The notes under the pieces were generated by a model. That model searched no databases. It saw only the letters and a program-made list of their open reading frames with translations, and was not told where the DNA came from. A stretch of DNA of 64,000 nt from Patescibacteria group bacterium UBA3531 (GTDB lineage Bacteria > Patescibacteriota > Minisyncoccia > Phycocordibacterales > UBA3531): positions 79,381-143,380 of the forward strand of contig DFOW01000001.1 of NCBI GenBank assembly GCA_002376885.1. The letters are read 5' to 3'. Below, in pieces: positions 4,048 through 40,004 of the stretch; the first letter of the stretch is position 1; every line of letters begins with the position of its first letter. Both the position numbers and the translations under genes were made by a program.

Positions 4048-5145
4048 TTAGATCTTAAATTCGACCACATCACCATCTTTGACGACATACTCTTTCCCTT
4101 CTGTCCGTACCAAACCCTTTTCACGAGCGGTCGCATATGAACCCGCACTAACAAGGTCGTCGTAGGCTACAATTTCTGCACGAATAAATTTATCTCTAAA
4201 GTCAGTGTGGATCGCTATGCCCGCAACCGGTGCTACAGACCCTCTTTTTGTGGTCCAGCCTCTGGTTTCTTTCTCTCCTGTTGTAAGAAAGGTTATCAGA
4301 TCTAAGAGTTCATAGCTTTTTTTGATAAGAAGATTGATACCATCATCTTGTGCACCAAGCTCATTTCTATATTCTTCTTTTTCCCCTGATTCAAAGTCTT
4401 TTAATTCATGCTCTATCCCCGCATCGATGACAAGATACTTTGAATCTCTCTCTTTTAAAAAACTAAGGAGATTTTTAAACCGGTCATCTTCTGTTTCATC
4501 TAAGTTGGTTCCTCCTGCTTTTTTATTAAGTCCATACATCATCGGTTTAAGTGTTAAAAGGTTACGTTCTTTTACAAGTTCTTTTTCTTCATCCTCTAAA
4601 TCAAGTTCTTCAGCTCGTTTTTCTTCTTCAAGTCCTTTTTTTAGTTTTTCTAAAACTTCTTTTTCTTTAAGAACTTTTTTATCTCCTTTTTTGATTTCTC
4701 GGTCAAGCGCCCCTAGTCGTTTTGCAACATTCTCCAAATCTTTCAGGGTAAGTTCTAAGTTGATTGTTTTTATATCATCAAGAGGATCGATTTTATCACT
4801 CACATGAGTAATGTCTTTGTCTTCAAAAATACGAACCATATGCAAAATAGCGTCCACCTCTTGAATATGGGAAAGAAATTGATTACCAAGCCCTTCCCCT
4901 TCGGAAGCTCCACGAACTAAGCCTGCGATATCAACAAATTCAGTTACTGCAGGGATTGTTTTTTCTGATTGAGATAGCTCAGTTAGTGTTTGTAATCGGG
5001 CATCGGGGACTGGGACAATACCCACCGATGGATCGATAGTACAAAAGGGGTAGTTTTCTGCCGGGACACTCTTTTTTGTAAGTGCGTTAAAGAGCGTGGA
5101 CTTCCCTACGTTTGGGAGTCCTACAATACCAATCGAGAGAGCCAT
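4048..5145 (-). CDS. ychF: Ribosome-binding ATPase YchF (Obg-family GTPase with C-terminal TGS domain)
   Basis: N-terminal G1 motif GIVGLPNVGKSTLFNALT, long coiled insertion, C-terminal TGS-like KDGDVVEFKI. Confidence 0.9.
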   Translation of the reverse strand: MALSIGIVGLPNVGKSTLFNALTKKSVPAENYPFCTIDPSVGIVPVPDARLQTLTELSQSEKTIPAVTEFVDIAGLVRGASEGEGLGNQFLSHIQEVDAILHMVRIFEDKDITHVSDKIDPLDDIKTINLELTLKDLENVAKRLGALDREIKKGDKKVLKEKEVLEKLKKGLEEEKRAEELDLEDEEKELVKERNLLTLKPMMYGLNKKAGGTNLDETEDDRFKNLLSFLKERDSKYLVIDAGIEHELKDFESGEKEEYRNELGAQDDGINLLIKKSYELLDLITFLTTGEKETRGWTTKRGSVAPVAGIAIHTDFRDKFIRAEIVAYDDLVSAGSYATAREKGLVRTEGKEYVVKDGDVVEFKI

Positions 5146-25093: not shown

Positions 25094-28352
<3,259 letters not shown>

Positions 28353-28368
28353 CTAGCACATGAAATGA

Positions 28369-28398
28369 TTGACAAATCATACATGTATATGATACATT
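28369..28398 (+). promoter_or_regulatory. Sigma70-like promoter TTGACA-N18-TGaTACATT reading into the candidate ncRNA
   Basis: ttgaca at 28369..28374; extended -10 tgatacatt ending at 28398. Confidence 0.5.
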
Positions 28399-28404
28399 GG
28401 TGGT

Positions 28405-28653
28405 GCGAGTTCGGCAGAGACCACATTCCGCGAGGGATGCCGCCGTCTCTGTGGAGGAACAACATCGGGAATACCATCGCTTGATGGCTGAACCGTTGCC
28501 CCACCTACGACGTTGGTTCTAGACCCGGACCGCAGGAGCATAGCGTCCCAAACCTGAAATACGGTTTCGGATTGAAACAAGGCCTTGCGCCAGAGCTAGT
28601 GCTTCGGGCCCCCAATCTGACTGCGGTCGGTGCGGGGGCCTTCTTCTTTTTTT
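28405..28653 (+). ncRNA. Candidate structured ncRNA of unknown class (about 250 nt, GC-rich relative to the genome), ending in an intrinsic terminator
   Basis: Bounded by the promoter above and the hairpin gggccccc...gggggcc (28606..28640) plus ttcttcttttttt. Internal stems ggtgg...ccacc, cagagac...gtctctg, aaacc-tgaaatac-ggttt, gtttc-ggatt-gaaac. Lies in divergent/convergent intergenic space, so it is not a leader for a plus-strand gene. Confidence 0.4.
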
Positions 28654-28683
28654 ACGTAAGGATTTACGTAAATCCTTACGTAA
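28652..28683. repeat. Perfect 32-nt palindrome ttacgtaaggatttacgtaaatccttacgtaa containing three TTACGTAA cores
   Basis: Reverse complement equals itself; begins inside the terminator T-run of the candidate ncRNA. Confidence 0.9.
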
Positions 28684-28693
28684 ACACATTCCC

Positions 28694-28874
28694 CCAAGAA
28701 ACCATATTTGGAAGCGTCCCTAAATAAAACCCTCTTGGAATAATATTTGAAGTACTATCAAACCTGCTTCCCAGCATAACTTTTGAAAGGGTCCTCGATT
28801 TTTTTAAAATACTCCCAAGGAACCACATTTGGGAGCGTCCCTAAATAAAACCCTCCTGGAATAATGTTTGAAGT
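28694..28874. repeat. Two 60-nt direct repeats (28694..28753 and 28815..28874, about 90 percent identical). Each has an internal stem (ccaaga/tcttgg; ctcccaa/ttgggag) and the conserved core agcgtccctaaataaaaccctc.
   Basis: Aligned by eye: ccaagaaaccatatttggaagcgtccctaaataaaaccctcttggaataatatttgaagt versus ccaaggaaccacatttgggagcgtccctaaataaaaccctcctggaataatgtttgaagt. Confidence 0.85.
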
Positions 28875-28979
28875 GTTGCCGCAGGCGAAGTGTGCTTGGT
28901 CTGCCTTAAGCAGACACAAGCCGAGGATAAGGAAATGTTGTCGCTGGAACAACATTTCCGGCGCTTCAAATATTATTCC
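28858..28979. repeat. Long hairpin of about 120 nt (ggaataatgtttgaag ... cttcaaatattattcc) enclosing nested perfect hairpins ggaaatgttgt-cgctgga-acaacatttcc and gtctgc-cttaa-gcagac
   Basis: Arms at 28858..28873 and 28964..28979; inner IR at 28931..28959. Overlaps the second direct repeat and abuts the GH15 stop. Confidence 0.8.
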
Positions 28980-28987
28980 AAAAAAAC

Positions 28988-30943
28988 CTATTTCTCTAGC
29001 TCCGCCAGTTTCTCCAAGTAATCCAAGATCGTGTGAATATACTCTGCGTGGCTCCAGGTTAGTGGGGCAACAGATAATTGTTCCCCAGTATACGGATCAA
29101 ATTGTTCTGCCAAGATTCCAGAACGAGGCGCGCGCTTAAAAATCCAGTCTAATTTTTTTTCAACTTCTTTTAGATCTTTGACTGTTTTTGCTTTAGCAAT
29201 TTCGTATTGATACATCCACAACGTAGTAATAATCCACGGATTTGGAATCTCTGCACGTCTATGGTATTGATCTCCTTCATATCTAATTGCACCACCAATA
29301 TCACCCTCATGGATCACACAACAAGGACCCTCCTGAAGCTGTGCAAACCCTTCTTGGTTTTTTGGATCATCTACCGGCAATACCCCAAACCGAAACGGAC
29401 CATAAAAACTACTGATGTCGTGTGTTCTGTCATAGGTAGGTTCTTTTGTTCGGTAGTCAATAAGTTTATAGAAAAATTTCTCATCTTTATTATAAAGATG
29501 TTTTTTAATAGCTGACTTTACAGCACTTGCTCCGTCTTTATATTTTTTGGCATCGAGCTTTTTACCAAGTGTCTCTGCAAAATTTGATGCAGCCATAAGC
29601 CCCGCATACACTACTGATGAAGAGTATGCTGTTGTTCCAAATTTCTCTTCCCATAAGTCATAGCTTCCGTATGGTAAGCCTGTCTTTTCGTCTCGATAAA
29701 AGTAGAGGAAATCTGCAGCTTTTTTAATGAACGAATTATAAATCTTTTCTATAAACTCAAGATCTTTTCTTCTTTTATAGTGCTCCCATAGGGCATATAA
29801 AATAATTGCTGTTTCATCTTCTTGGATTGCTAACTGTTTTTTGCCTTCATATACCCATGGATGCCAACTACTTCCAAGCGATCCATCGGGGCTAAATTTA
29901 TGATTCAAATATCCTTCCTCACTTATTACTTGATTACAAAATTCATAGAAACGTTTGGTGGTATCAAAATACCCAAGACGATCAAAAGCAGTTGCTGTTA
30001 CCCCTGCATCTCGCGGCCACATATATGCATATGTATCGTGCCCATGATGAGAAATATCAGAGTCCCCTGATGCAATGATAGACCCTCGCTTATCAACATG
30101 CGTTTGCATAATAAGGAGTGATTTTTTAAAAAGCGAAACAAGCTTTGCATCAAGCCCATTAAAATCAAGATCAACTTTATTAACCCACGCATGCCAATAG
30201 TCTCGTGTTGTTTGAATAAGATGCTCGGGAGTTTTTATATGGATATAGTTATGTATCCCCTTTACCTCATGAATTGTATTGGATGACACAACCCAATAAT
30301 GGATTACTGATTCTCCGTCACCTTTTATTTCTGTTTCAAATGATATTGTTGAATCAACAGAACCATGTTGGATAGGATTATTTGAAAGGTTTCCATCTTC
30401 AGCATCCTTCCATGTTCCTTCTTTTCCTTGAGTTTGATAAAGGCCAATACCATATTCTTTAAATGGCTTTCCATCCATTTTCCCCGAAACCAAAAAATTT
30501 GTTTTATTACGGTAATGAATAATAGCAGTCAAATCTGGATCGTAATATGCAGTATGACCGCCGTCGTCTTCTCCTTGAAATTGCTGGTTGAAAAATATTT
30601 TAAATGAACGCGTACGTGGCATGGTATTTTTTACCGACACCTTCCGCAAAAAAATATTTTGCTCGTTATAGATTGCGTCACTAAAATTAAGCTCAATACC
30701 AAGAGCCTTGTGTCGTGCTCGAATAGAAGAAACCATGGTTTCTTTTTCGTAATCAATAACGGTCTCCCACCCTGGACCAGAAAGCCAACTCATGTTGCCA
30801 TCTACCCATACACCAATTTTGTGTTGTCGGCCTCCTGTATGGTTTTCTTGCCCAACATACGGATAGAAAAAATCACATACTTGCGCACAATTATCGTATG
30901 CAATTAACATTTCTCCATTACCCAATACTAAAGAGCGAGGCAT
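28988..30943 (-). CDS. Glycoside hydrolase family 15 (glucoamylase/glucodextranase-like)
   Basis: 651 aa. N-terminal SLVLGNGEMLIAYDNCAQVCDFFYPYVG beta-sandwich followed by an (alpha/alpha)6 catalytic region (WPRDAG...). Architecture typical of bacterial/archaeal GH15. Confidence 0.8.
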   Translation of the reverse strand: MPRSLVLGNGEMLIAYDNCAQVCDFFYPYVGQENHTGGRQHKIGVWVDGNMSWLSGPGWETVIDYEKETMVSSIRARHKALGIELNFSDAIYNEQNIFLRKVSVKNTMPRTRSFKIFFNQQFQGEDDGGHTAYYDPDLTAIIHYRNKTNFLVSGKMDGKPFKEYGIGLYQTQGKEGTWKDAEDGNLSNNPIQHGSVDSTISFETEIKGDGESVIHYWVVSSNTIHEVKGIHNYIHIKTPEHLIQTTRDYWHAWVNKVDLDFNGLDAKLVSLFKKSLLIMQTHVDKRGSIIASGDSDISHHGHDTYAYMWPRDAGVTATAFDRLGYFDTTKRFYEFCNQVISEEGYLNHKFSPDGSLGSSWHPWVYEGKKQLAIQEDETAIILYALWEHYKRRKDLEFIEKIYNSFIKKAADFLYFYRDEKTGLPYGSYDLWEEKFGTTAYSSSVVYAGLMAASNFAETLGKKLDAKKYKDGASAVKSAIKKHLYNKDEKFFYKLIDYRTKEPTYDRTHDISSFYGPFRFGVLPVDDPKNQEGFAQLQEGPCCVIHEGDIGGAIRYEGDQYHRRAEIPNPWIITTLWMYQYEIAKAKTVKDLKEVEKKLDWIFKRAPRSGILAEQFDPYTGEQLSVAPLTWSHAEYIHTILDYLEKLAELEK

Positions 30944-38403: not shown

Positions 38404-39690
38404 TTAAAACACCTGACTCCTATAAACATGGTTAAACTCTGGGAACTCTTTTGGTTCAACATTAAGTACCTTTACTGTTCCCGTCTCTTTATCAATTTCA
38501 ATAGTTGCAAAGCTTTTATTATTGTTACGTGTTATCTCGTTCAGAATATTTTCTGGATTTACATTGAATGACAAAGTATACACCCCTGACGCAAGGTCGG
38601 TTATATCAAGATTTTGATCAACATAGGTAAAGAAGTACGTATCTCCCCACCCAACCGACACCCCTTGTCGCTCCTTACCACAAATTAAATATCGTGCCTC
38701 GCTATCTTTAAATGCTTCGTCATTTATTTGTGTTACGTCTCTAATACAAAAAGTAGTTTTTTGTTCTTGCTTGCCACTAAACACATGGGGATGACTATCA
38801 TCGTGTACATGGTCATGTTGATTACGTGCACTAATATTCTCTTCTTGAGTTTGAGAAAGAACATAGGTAACAAAATCACTGTAATGATAATGCAGATGCT
38901 CTTCGTGCCATAAAAAGATCCCTACGGGGGTATCTCTGTATGAGTCATCAGTTTTATAAATTCTTTGAAGTACCACTCTATCAATATCTTCTTTTATTCC
39001 AGCTGTGCCTGGATCAGCAACAAGTTCAAGAGGGCCTTCTCCTACATTGTAGTAGGTAGTACTAAACAATAAAAAGTCTCGCCCCCCTTCTTGTTTAAGC
39101 GTTATATCTTGTGGCGGAAGAGGAATAAGGTCTGGCAATAATTCAACCTCTCCACGCACGAAAGCTTCTATAATAGTTCGCTCTTTCTTTGAAATAACCC
39201 TATCAAAAAATTTATTTTTATTAGAGTATCGTTCGTCTATCCGCGATACAATTTTTTCTGCAACAAAGGCTGGTGTGTCGTCCGATGAAAATTCATACAA
39301 ACCAGGAACAAAAAAGTCCCCTAAAATCTCAATTGGTGGAATAATAAATTGTGTTCCGTGTATCAAAAAGGCCTCGCGCTCAAGCTCCCCCCACTCAAGC
39401 TCTTGTGTTAAATATTCAAGAATATCTTGGTTATAAGCATCCCAGGTAATGCCACGAATTGCCTCTTGGAAGAGCTTTTCGTCATCCATCCCCCATCCGA
39501 ATTCTTCACCAATGGCATACGATAATGCCTTATGGTTGTATCCATCTTTTAAATCAACAAAGAGTGCTTGTGGTTCGCCACTTTCTACACGATTTAAAAA
39601 TACAAAAGGAGAAAAATAAAAATATCCTGAAACAAGGATACTGATAAACATTACAATCGTGAGGGACTTCCAAGGCATTACTTTTTCCAA
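38404..39690 (-). CDS. Hypothetical secreted/membrane-anchored protein (428 aa)
   Basis: N-terminal TM helix, His-rich patch (HEEHLHYHYSD...HDHVHDDSHPH); no family recognised. Confidence 0.5.
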   Translation of the reverse strand: MEKVMPWKSLTIVMFISILVSGYFYFSPFVFLNRVESGEPQALFVDLKDGYNHKALSYAIGEEFGWGMDDEKLFQEAIRGITWDAYNQDILEYLTQELEWGELEREAFLIHGTQFIIPPIEILGDFFVPGLYEFSSDDTPAFVAEKIVSRIDERYSNKNKFFDRVISKKERTIIEAFVRGEVELLPDLIPLPPQDITLKQEGGRDFLLFSTTYYNVGEGPLELVADPGTAGIKEDIDRVVLQRIYKTDDSYRDTPVGIFLWHEEHLHYHYSDFVTYVLSQTQEENISARNQHDHVHDDSHPHVFSGKQEQKTTFCIRDVTQINDEAFKDSEARYLICGKERQGVSVGWGDTYFFTYVDQNLDITDLASGVYTLSFNVNPENILNEITRNNNKSFATIEIDKETGTVKVLNVEPKEFPEFNHVYRSQVF

Positions 39691-39847
39691 TCTTTTATTA
39701 TGATGGTCTTTCCTTTCTTTGTAATCAGTAGCTTTTGACGTTCGCGAATATTGAGTTCATCTACAATCTCAGAAGGGATTACAATCGAAAGACTTCGTTT
39801 TCCTACTCGAGTAACCTTACGAACATATTTTTTCATAGCCCTATTAT

Positions 39848-39887
39848 GCTACGTAACATGTTACGTAGCAAGCTACGTAACAAAACG
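39848..39887. promoter_or_regulatory. Perfect 22-nt palindrome gctacgtaacatgttacgtagc followed by a third half-site copy (agctacgtaac); candidate operator upstream of the XRE gene
   Basis: Read directly. Shares the TACGTAA core with the 28652 palindrome. Followed by hairpin aaggccacc...ggtggcctt (39890..39930). Confidence 0.5.
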
Positions 39888-40004
39888 AACAAAGGCCACC
39901 GGAACTCCTCAAAGAGAGTTTGGTGGCCTTAGTTGACGTGCCTTTCCAGCTCACGTCTTTTTCTAAGTTTCCCCAGTGCCTTTGCCGATAAACAATAGTA
40001 GTAT

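Follow-up and report, generated by a model that had tools for sequence, protein, structure and literature searches.

The cluster of a palindrome, direct repeats and hairpins between the tgt gene and a GH15 glycoside hydrolase gene of a marine Patescibacteria species is tentatively explained as a termination and insulation zone. This zone would separate the GH15 operon from a convergent candidate RNA gene and would additionally carry a non-canonical orphan operator. The explanation was favored at a confidence falling somewhat short of even, and we infer that the strands are transcribed, that transcription terminates here and that a protein binds. The layout itself is convergent: on the plus strand, a promoter-like site is followed by a GC-rich segment and then by a terminator, and GH15 is located on the minus strand.

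All features are part of a non-coding block of 659 bp (28329..28987) between tgt (27114-28328, minus strand) and the GH15 gene (28988-30943, minus strand), both flanking genes being assigned by Pfam. According to a gap survey, this block represents the largest gap without genes in the window, i.e., in the whole stretch of 64,000 nucleotides that was analyzed; other intergenic spacers of this compact genome are otherwise short. The 340-bp stretch featured in an earlier note on this DNA corresponds to the distal portion of the block. Pfam annotation of the neighborhood yielded tgt, uvrB, GH15 and GH57.

L086 and L087, the nearest relatives with conserved synteny, share the gene order CAP, DAC, GT4, GH57, GH15, tgt, uvrB; their GH15 and tgt genes are separated by spacers of only 64 and 11 bp, respectively, compared with 659 bp here. 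Because of these short spacers, the whole block is regarded as lineage-specific, and it appears to be confined to one marine Patescibacteria species. Moreover, pattern search, blastn and nhmmer revealed no homologs of the block in approximately 2 Mb of fetched loci, and it showed no homology to the hairpin-rich non-coding DNA beside an orphan operator in locus L144. Since the block is carried by one species only, none of its structures has comparative support. The earlier note had named absence of the repeats from close relatives with conserved synteny, together with a lack of transcripts and binding, as speaking against a function; the features are indeed absent from the syntenic relatives, although the Tgt proteins of these nearest relatives share only 78% and 69% identity with the one studied here. 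Within the species, the intergenic sequence of 659 bp is identical in the ENA, NCBI and JGI assemblies apart from one SNP at 28936 (T in the window, C in contigs L001-L003), which is also the sole SNP relative to L001 and L003 across 14.6-21 kb. The palindrome, repeat and hairpin features are no assembly artefact, since three independent assemblies agree on the sequence. The genome is also represented in the metagenomes ERR599159 and JGI 3300020447.

A consensus scan identified a promoter-like site on the plus strand (TTGACA-18-TACATT with TG; 28369..28398) that faces a GC-rich candidate non-coding RNA (28399..28652, plus strand) recognized by its composition and fold. The -35 element of this site overlaps a second promoter-like site, located on the minus strand and facing tgt (TTGTCA-17-TATTTT; 28375 to 28347). 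The GC content of the candidate RNA amounts to 56-59% compared with about 40%, and its 3' end consists of the stem GGGCCCCC...GGGGGCC followed by a T-run (28606-28652); the 'ncRNA terminator' previously placed ahead of the palindrome does comprise a genuine stem and T-run. Searches of the candidate RNA against Rfam 15 returned nothing but noise at E<=10, and both strands of 28300-29050 likewise yielded noise only (<=20 bits). Further Rfam scans, including relaxed thresholds and the loci of the relatives, detected no known RNA family, and homologs of the candidate RNA were found in none of the fetched loci.

Beyond this RNA, the block contains two direct repeats of 66 nt, R1 (28688..28753) and R2 (28809..28874), that are identical at 59 of 66 positions (89%), with 121 bp between their starts; the two 60-nt repeats of about 90% identity at this distance that had been described before are thus borne out in slightly longer form. 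The substitutions between them comprise six transitions and one transversion (T/A, C/T, A/G, T/C, A/G, T/C, A/G). The window contains two occurrences of a 28-mer of the repeat, shuffles none. Pattern search, blastn and nhmmer detected no other copy of this 28-mer, of an 18-mer or of the whole block, either within the 64-kb window, in a further 6 kb outside it or among the approximately 2 Mb of fetched loci; the search for further genomic copies suggested by the earlier note covered 70 kb of this genome and was negative. R1 and R2 are read as a local duplication. Conspecific assemblies differ by 1-3 bases in 21 kb, whereas R1 and R2 are 11% apart; the block has therefore been retained for a long time. 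The possibility that R1 and R2 represent a DGR TR/VR pair was rejected, as the mismatches are not confined to the adenines of one copy and no RT gene is located nearby.

On the minus strand, the R1/R2 consensus forms a predicted hairpin of 21 pairs, in which all five in-stem substitutions preserve pairing, with an energy of -13.8 kcal/mol versus -5.35 kcal/mol on the plus strand. About nine of these pairs are G.U pairs, corresponding to C.A mismatches on the plus strand; the minus strand is G/U-rich at the repeats, which inflates G.U pairing, and the strand-specific substitution signal comprises six events only. Single repeats folded with z values of only -0.8 to -2.0 relative to shuffles, and the stem formerly attributed to each repeat does not exceed chance expectation.

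In contrast to the single repeats, the region 28640-29000 as a whole folds far better than shuffles (z = -7.1 on the plus and -6.0 on the minus strand). Just after the GH15 stop codon, the minus strand is predicted to form a long Y-shaped hairpin of 124 nt (28857..28980; -56 to -61 kcal/mol), whose arms of 17 nt (28857-28873 and 28964-28980) match at 94%. The long nested hairpin with an arm overlapping repeat 2, as noted before, is thereby recovered. Regarding the two further perfect hairpins said to lie within it, hairpin A (28931..28959) possesses a perfect stem of 11 bp, but hairpin B (28894..28921; 11 bp) contains one bulged A. The SNP at 28936 falls within hairpin A and converts an A-U to a G.U pair on the minus strand and to a C.A mismatch on the plus strand. 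The arms of the long hairpin are related to an 18-nt motif, TTGGAATAATATTTGAAG, with three matches in the window versus 0.13 expected: copy 1 (28735..28752, plus strand), copy 2 with two mismatches (28856-28873, plus strand) and an inverted copy (28964..28981, minus strand) located 7 nt from the GH15 stop codon. The inverted copy may pair either with copy 2, giving the 124-nt hairpin, or over 18 of 18 positions with copy 1.

Furthermore, a terminator-like element was located on the minus strand (28799..28835), consisting of the hairpin CUCCCAA...UUGGGAG (28835 to 28812) and the subsequent tract UAUUUUAAAAAAA (28811 to 28799). The minus-strand hairpin of R2 (7-8 bp) is followed by UAUUUU and the long hairpin by GGGUUUUAUUU, neither of which is called by the rule-based scan. 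The consensus terminator scan made no call in 28200-29200 and missed the element at 28799-28835 because its loop exceeds 8 nt. We read the long hairpin as a putative structure that would form the 3' end, or the terminator, of the GH15 operon mRNA. The earlier view that the cluster is not a simple terminator was fair, yet among the roles predicted for the hairpins, termination or 3'-end formation for GH15 operon transcripts of the minus strand has the best support.

Directly behind the T-run of the candidate RNA's terminator, a perfect palindrome was observed. The sequence ttacgtaaggatttacgtaaatccttacgtaa (28652-28683) had been reported as a palindrome of 32 nt; its perfect symmetry in fact extends to 34 nt (28651..28684), with 17+17 nt and no spacer. 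Stems of 17 nt were encountered in none of 20 shuffles of the window. The palindrome is composed of the three 12-bp units TTTTACGTAAGG, ATTTACGTAAAT and CCTTACGTAAAC, the TACGTA cores of which lie at 28653, 28665 and 28677 and thus keep an exact 12-bp period. Units 1 and 3 are reverse complements of each other, and unit 2 is symmetric in itself. Neither the palindrome nor its immediate surroundings show an evident promoter; the palindrome is not upstream of any gene but lies between the RNA terminator and the non-coding repeats, with no ORF downstream. Two Logan k-mer contigs stop within it, presumably because the assembly graph is broken by a perfect palindrome that exceeds the k-mer in length. 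Searches for the palindrome and for a 22-mer repeat core in metagenome and viral collections gave no matches, the metagenome collection being incomplete for this species, as the known JGI contig L003 was also missed by the scan. A viral scan for (TACGTA-N6)x3 retrieved 35 loci and was uninformative because nearly all of these matches are simple 12-nt tandem repeats.

Mismatch-free TACGTA-N6-TACGTA occurs in the window only in the palindrome and at 39850-39879. The latter belongs to the window's only other TACGTA-N6-TACGTA-N6-TACGTA, which is situated 11 kb from the palindrome and 10 nt upstream of a gene (39678..39836, minus strand) encoding a stand-alone AbrB-N (swapped-hairpin) DNA-binding protein of 52 aa (Pfam PF04014, E=1.7e-6, above cut-off). 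This canonical operator (39847..39882) consists of three tandem 12-bp units TGYTACGTARCA and, as read from the sequence, contains a promoter-like TTGCTA-17-CATAAT for the AbrB-like gene. The family profile of the protein aligns over the full AbrB N-domain 1Z0R, and family members share 65-86% identity across Patescibacteria. An exact two-unit motif was present within 150 nt upstream of the AbrB-like gene in 51 of 69 distinct Patescibacteria loci; allowing up to two mismatches, 62 of the 69 carried two units, and three units were found in nine. The motif matched 77 times in 297 kb of AbrB-like gene loci versus zero times in 909 kb of tgt loci. Of the 142 units (80 loci) that define the operator pattern, 133 carry G at position 2 and 141 carry C at position 11. 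Moreover, locus L205 harbors a second operator before a NUDIX gene, representing a secondary target of the regulator. The 52-aa protein is a candidate binder of the TACGTA units. Searches of full-text papers yielded nothing on the tandem TGYTACGTARCA operator or on AbrB-type regulators in Patescibacteria.

Several observations connect the palindrome with this operator. The order of hairpin, T-run and TACGTA units is common to 28606-28684 and the canonical site (alignment score 35; null 21+-2.4), and the three-unit operators of L128, L154, L161 and L167 are perfect palindromes of 36 bp with the same design. The orphan operators in L135 and L144 likewise feature a hairpin, a T-run and TACGTA units and are placed between a stop codon and a terminator hairpin. 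In contrast, the canonical G at position 2 and C at position 11 are absent from all three palindrome units, the flanks of which score log-odds of -10 to -16, equivalent to random TACGTA background, compared with a canonical mean of +8. We read the palindrome as a putative orphan, non-canonical operator-like site. Protein binding, as proposed before, is accordingly plausible for the palindrome, given its shared plan with the AbrB operator, but not for the other elements. The 52-aa AbrB-like protein would be a likelier binder than the XRE protein previously suggested, no XRE homolog adjoining the AbrB-like gene in any of the 80 loci. It is a candidate only, because the palindrome lacks the near-invariant G/C flanks of the operator. 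It is doubtful whether the palindrome functions as an orphan operator of the 52-aa regulator, or of a close specificity variant, and acts as a roadblock insulating the convergent units. As a separate observation, orphan canonical sites do exist at gene 3' ends (L135, L144).

The elements could also be neutral leftovers, a decaying remnant of inserted DNA such as a degraded gene cassette or mobile-element scar without present function, which is considered rather unlikely. Absence of the block from both syntenic relatives, the lack of a homolog in any collection searched, repeat substitutions that are chiefly transitions, as drift predicts, and single-repeat folds no better than shuffles all agree with such an origin. 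However, a perfect palindrome of 34 bp, an 18/18 inverted repeat and an 11-bp hairpin would not outlast the 11% drift seen between R1 and R2, agreement with the AbrB operator plan by chance is very improbable, and the block is the largest gap without genes in an otherwise compact genome. Strong folding of the region on both strands and a promoter-like TTGAAA-16-TAAAAT on the plus strand, ending at 28810 just ahead of R2, would suit tandem sRNA genes, with R1 and R2 as plus-strand paralogous sRNA cores or the minus-strand hairpins as independent structured RNA. This was judged clearly unlikely, considering that R1 and R2 have unrelated upstream sequences, that neither repeat is followed on the plus strand by a terminator with a U-tract, that the plus-strand consensus structure is weak (-5.35 kcal/mol), and that neither Rfam matches nor homologs were obtained. 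The tandem paralogous small RNAs envisaged earlier are not supported: the repeats have no common promoter or terminator, and their plus-strand fold is unremarkable, the minus-strand fold being better. Less likely still is a MITE-like non-autonomous element of approximately 247 bp, in which the 18-bp inverted repeats would serve as terminal repeats and R2 would be an internal duplication. The inverted repeats are indeed perfect (18/18; 28735-28752 and 28964-28981) and 211 bp apart, and the block is an insertion relative to the relatives; its ends show no visible target-site duplication though, the flanks differ, a second copy is missing from the 64-kb window, the 6 kb beyond and every fetched locus, the 22-mer core has zero matches in metagenome or viral collections, and no transposase gene is located nearby.

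Two paralogous small proteins, encoded on the minus strand by one ORF of 65 aa (28758-28955) and another of 50 aa (28676-28828), are a very improbable explanation. Both ORFs are open and read the repeat in one frame (TSNIIPxGFYLGTLPNxVxW), and the 50-aa ORF was called by the ENA and JGI gene callers. None of the six ORFs of the block tested has a Pfam match, and no homolog outside the species was contained in a library of 5.8 billion clusters or one of 1.84 billion representatives: a word-index search with the 50-aa ORF returned itself alone, and an exhaustive HMMER search with the 65-aa ORF found its own variant and P0243, a spurious satellite-repeat ORF. Moreover, only two of seven repeat substitutions are synonymous, which gives no indication that purifying selection acts on a coding sequence, and the start codon of the 65-aa ORF falls within hairpin A. 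In addition, tblastn of the AbrB-like, XRE and neighboring proteins against the block gave no matches. The least probable explanation is a replication origin, iterons as in plasmids, or a site for site-specific recombination (dif or att); the earlier note had raised iterons, an origin-like element or a recombination site on the grounds that symmetry elements are densely packed in an intergenic region. The GC-skew analysis recommended there showed a cumulative skew declining steadily over the window, monotonically at 18-40 kb, with no switch near 28.7 kb. No DnaA box (<=1 mismatch) occurs in 28.3-29.0 kb, counts over the window being at chance, and TTATCCACA with <=1 mismatch is absent between 20.2 and 30.0 kb. 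Neither dnaA nor a rep, par or recombinase gene is nearby, two long repeats stand against three or more short phased iterons, and the block is missing from the syntenic relatives. A dif site is usually imperfect, 28 bp long and located at the terminus, which a perfect 34-bp palindrome at a locus without skew switch does not fit; no evidence supports a recombination site. Altogether, since no skew switch, DnaA box, rep gene, further repeat copy or protein or Rfam homolog was found, there is no support for an origin or iterons, for a dispersed mobile element or for small proteins.

According to the favored explanation of a termination and insulation zone, the candidate plus-strand RNA gene would run head-on into the minus-strand GH15 operon, and the features described would occupy the convergence zone of both transcription units. 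The GH15 transcript would form the Y-shaped hairpin after its stop codon and then the R2 hairpin with its U-tract, together providing its 3' end or terminator. R1 and R2 would have arisen by local duplication of part of the GH15 3' region and would have drifted by 11% with minus-strand pairing kept. The palindrome would serve as the DNA target of a small, symmetric DNA-binding protein and follow the plan of the AbrB-N regulator's operator; a protein bound to it, behind the T-run of the RNA terminator, would stop read-through from both sides. On the doubtful reading of the palindrome as a working operator, orphan sites of this kind, abutting intrinsic terminators on their T-run side, would be protein roadblocks; here, such a roadblock would shield a hitherto undescribed structured RNA gene specific to the lineage against antisense read-through.

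The 340 bp themselves are a curiosity of one species and of modest practical value. The broader outcome is a highly conserved 52-aa AbrB-type protein throughout Patescibacteria, most loci of which carry two or three tandem TGYTACGTARCA palindromes upstream. Next to nothing is known about the regulation of transcription in these uncultured bacteria with reduced genomes, and a conserved regulator-operator pair with secondary sites offers a concrete handle on it. Such sites so far comprise the NUDIX gene, the orphan sites at terminators and possibly the palindrome at 28651-28684. If the palindrome proved to be a working orphan operator and roadblock, this would establish, for the candidate phyla radiation, a first conserved regulon of a transcription factor together with a novel device for insulation.

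Compared with known systems, the zone resembles intrinsic terminators and 3'-UTR hairpins in that stable hairpins begin right after a stop codon, in its minus-strand hairpin with U-tract (28835 to 28799) and in its setting between two convergent units. Ordinary terminators of the window, composed of an A-run, a hairpin and a T-run, typically measure 25-31 nt, whereas the zone is much larger and features a branched hairpin of 124 nt, a duplicated 66-nt module and a 34-bp palindrome. With origin iterons it shares the grouping of direct repeats and palindromes in non-coding DNA, but it has only two repeats of 66 nt at 121 bp, neither DnaA boxes nor a skew switch, and no AT-rich unwinding element beside an initiator gene. 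MITEs and REP/BIME elements are similar regarding the perfect 18-bp inverted repeats around approximately 210 bp of hairpin-rich non-coding DNA and the intergenic position at a gene 3' end; unlike these, the zone is single-copy as far as visible, without target-site duplication or family members in the collections searched. Relative to AbrB/MazE-fold operators of the tandem TGYTACGTARCA type, the palindrome differs by its lack of the outer G/C at positions 2 and 11, of a gene within approximately 150 nt downstream and of a recognizable promoter. It agrees with them in its three TACGTA-centered units with 12-bp period, in its overall symmetry, unit 1 and unit 3 being reverse complements and unit 2 self-symmetric, and in following a terminator hairpin and T-run, as do the canonical site and those of L135 and L144.

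The window represents a chromosomal stretch of a marine, Paceibacteria-type member of the Patescibacteria, in which the genes tgt (27114-28328, minus strand) and GH15, encoding a glycoside hydrolase (28988-30943, minus strand), are separated by a non-coding block of 659 bp (28329-28987). According to a gap survey of the window, this block is the longest gap without genes in the 64 kb. GH57 and GT4 genes are located upstream of GH15, and uvrB follows downstream of tgt. Tgt was found unaltered on ENA, NCBI (GCA_002708165.1, PAMJ01000009.1), JGI and Logan contigs, and its closest named relatives belong to Patescibacteria and Paceibacterota. The gene order Cupin/CAP, DAC, GT4, GH57, GH15, tgt, uvrB is common to the two nearest relatives retrieved, L086 and L087 (Tgt identity of 78% and 69% to the window, respectively). 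Since the GH15-tgt spacer comprises only 64 bp in L086 and 11 bp in L087, the entire 659-bp block, including a GC-rich RNA candidate, is a lineage-specific insertion. Absence from syntenic relatives, part of what the earlier note would count as refuting, was thus observed. Likewise, the search for further repeat copies yielded no second copy, and no relative of any other part of the block was detected, in the remaining window sequence, an adjoining 6 kb and ~2 Mb of fetched loci. Pattern scans of metagenome and viral collections and comparison with Rfam also revealed no relative.

The feature, i.e., the distal ~340 bp of the block, has the same sequence in three independent assemblies save one SNP at 28936 and is therefore no assembly artefact. 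This position, located in the stem of hairpin A, is T in the window and C in three same-species contigs; it is the sole difference to two of them (L001 and L003) across 14.6-21 kb, and L002 (NCBI) features two further SNPs. Moreover, two Logan contigs from different runs (L004, L005) end within the palindrome, position 1 corresponding to window position ~28680. This would fit a perfect palindrome that exceeds k in length and thereby interrupts a de Bruijn graph, and k-mer assemblies may systematically place such palindromes at contig ends.

The perfect palindrome reported previously is present and symmetric over 34 nt (28651-28684), and so are the two direct repeats R1 (28688-28753) and R2 (28809-28874), which are 66 nt each, 89% identical and start 121 bp apart. 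Both contain a direct copy of the 18-nt motif TTGGAATAATATTTGAAG, of which an inverted copy is located at 28964-28981, separated by 7 nt from the stop codon of GH15 (three matches in the window vs. 0.13 expected). The inverted copy closes a 124-nt hairpin with R2 or, by pairing at 18/18 positions with R1, a longer domain. Of the two perfect hairpins said to be enclosed by the long hairpin, hairpin A is indeed perfect (11 bp), but hairpin B (11 bp) contains one bulge. On both strands, the region is folded more stably than shuffles, by 6-7 standard deviations. The stem attributed to each repeat does not exceed chance, folding of the single repeats being unremarkable compared to shuffles (z -0.8 to -2.0).

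Six transitions and one transversion separate R1 from R2, interpreted as ordinary drift following local duplication. Their minus-strand consensus hairpin comprises 21 bp, including ~9 G.U pairs, and reaches -13.8 kcal/mol, vs. a much weaker -5.35 kcal/mol on the plus strand. All five in-stem substitutions preserve minus-strand pairing (UG/UA, AU/GU and GU/GC exchanges), and SNP 28936 yields G.U in the minus-strand RNA vs. C.A in that of the plus strand. Furthermore, the minus-strand R2 hairpin is followed by UAUUUU, and the long hairpin begins immediately past the GH15 stop codon. Based on these findings, a function within the GH15 mRNA is favoured, where the elements would act as tandem terminators or structures of the 3' end, albeit on a weak signal: it consists of six events on a G/U-rich strand, and folding of the single repeats does not exceed that of shuffles.

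On the plus strand, a candidate RNA of ~250 nt (28399-28652, GC 56-59%) is bounded by a promoter-like TTGACA-18-TACATT and a stem with T-run. It has no Rfam match and no homolog in the fetched loci, and is missing from the syntenic relatives. Within it, GGACCGCAG (28527-28535) is complementary to CTGCGGTC in the terminator loop, so that alternative pairing could occur. Back-to-back promoter-like sites with overlapping -35 boxes (TTGACAA / TTGTCAA) were observed at 28347-28398, one facing the RNA candidate and the other tgt; because of the latter, the inserted block may have supplied tgt with its own promoter.

Exact TACGTA-N6-TACGTA occurs in the window only at the palindrome and at 39847-39882, where a perfect-hairpin scan identified TGCTACGTAACA TGTTACGTAGCA AGCTACGTAACA. 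A stand-alone 52-aa ORF (39678-39836, minus strand), whose start codon follows the latter cluster by 10 nt, matches the AbrB/MazE fold (PF04014, E=1.7e-6), and its family profile aligns over the entire AbrB N-terminal domain (1Z0R). This highly conserved family (65-86% identity) is widespread in Patescibacteria. Among 80 metagenome loci fetched, 69 were distinct; the exact motif lies within 150 nt upstream of the AbrB-like gene in 51 of these, with at most two mismatches in 62, and as three units in nine. In total, 77 motifs were counted in 297 kb of AbrB-like loci vs. none in 909 kb of tgt loci. Each operator consists of two or three head-to-tail copies of the palindromic 12-bp unit TGYTACGTARCA, and the three-unit operators of L128, L154, L161 and L167 represent perfect 36-bp palindromes. 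No XRE homolog resides beside the AbrB-like gene in the 80 loci, and the motif therefore belongs with the AbrB-like gene. Gene and TGYTACGTARCA units thus look like a conserved, autoregulated repressor-operator pair, of which full-text literature searches retrieved no description.

Variations of this arrangement were also observed. In L205, a gene for a NUDIX hydrolase is directly preceded by a second canonical operator (4290-4313), whose flanks nearly match those of the autoregulatory one, so that the regulator appears to have further targets in some genomes. Orphan canonical operators in L135 (2046-2110) and L144 (3911-3990) lie 12 nt past a gene's stop codon and adjoin a terminator hairpin with its T-run on the operator side. 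The L144 site is followed by ~600 bp of non-coding DNA that is rich in hairpins, in part GC-rich, and without sequence similarity to the window block. One lineage (L208-L210, 6944-10156) carries the AbrB-like gene without operator, as the last gene of an operon that also encodes an HTH protein and two N6/N4 DNA methyltransferases. Between the window's canonical operator and the XRE gene (39883-40004), two hairpins with T-runs are encoded on opposite strands (AAGGCCACC...GGTGGCCTT, minus; GACGTG...CACGTC+TTTTT, plus); this interval may encode a small RNA, although Rfam returned weak noise only.

The block would set the candidate plus-strand RNA gene head-on to the GH15 operon, and the feature would then represent the convergence zone of both transcription units, where 3' structures of GH15, a duplicated module and, directly adjoining the terminator of the RNA gene, an operator-like palindrome are located. 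This reading, a termination zone plus orphan operator, is tentatively preferred at slightly less than an even chance. A neutral remnant is unlikely; against pure junk argues that perfect symmetry elements persist in a compact genome beside R1 and R2, which have diverged by 11%. The remaining probability is shared by small RNA, MITE, peptide, origin and recombination readings. The proposed origin or iterons are unsupported, as a GC-skew switch, a DnaA box and a nearby initiator gene are lacking, and so are tandem small RNAs, given the weak plus-strand consensus and unexceptional single repeats. A dispersed mobile element would agree with the perfect 18-bp inverted repeats, but neither a second copy nor a target duplication was found. 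The seven R1/R2 mismatches are not adenine-specific, which disagrees with a DGR repeat pair. As for small proteins, the minus strand contains ORFs of 65 and 50 aa that share one reading frame through the repeat; they lack Pfam matches, neither 5.8 billion clusters nor 1.84 billion representatives contained a homolog, and only two of seven substitutions are synonymous in this frame. The sole extra match to the 65-aa query, P0243 (E=1.8e-18), is a false positive caused by satellite repeats, this 1414-aa 'protein' consisting of ~50-aa tandem repeats whose matches sum up to the score.

Protein binding, as suggested earlier, is plausible for the palindrome but for no other feature of the block. Like the AbrB-N operator, the palindrome shows a TACGTA core, an exact 12-bp period and three units, with units 1 and 3 being reverse complements of each other and unit 2 symmetric in itself. 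It is placed directly behind a terminator hairpin with T-run, an order shared with the window's canonical site and the orphan sites; alignment of the two window loci over stem, T-run and units scored 35 vs. a null of 21+-2.4. In contrast to the AbrB-N operator, whose 142 canonical units almost always carry G at position 2 and C at position 11, none of the palindrome's three units has either base, and their flank scores resemble random TACGTA sites. Since core, period, units and placement fit and flanks do not, the palindrome is termed operator-like but non-canonical; it is a plausible protein-binding site and, for the 52-aa AbrB-like protein in particular, a putative one. The chief value of the block's features would lie in the apparently conserved AbrB-N regulator-operator pair reached through them.
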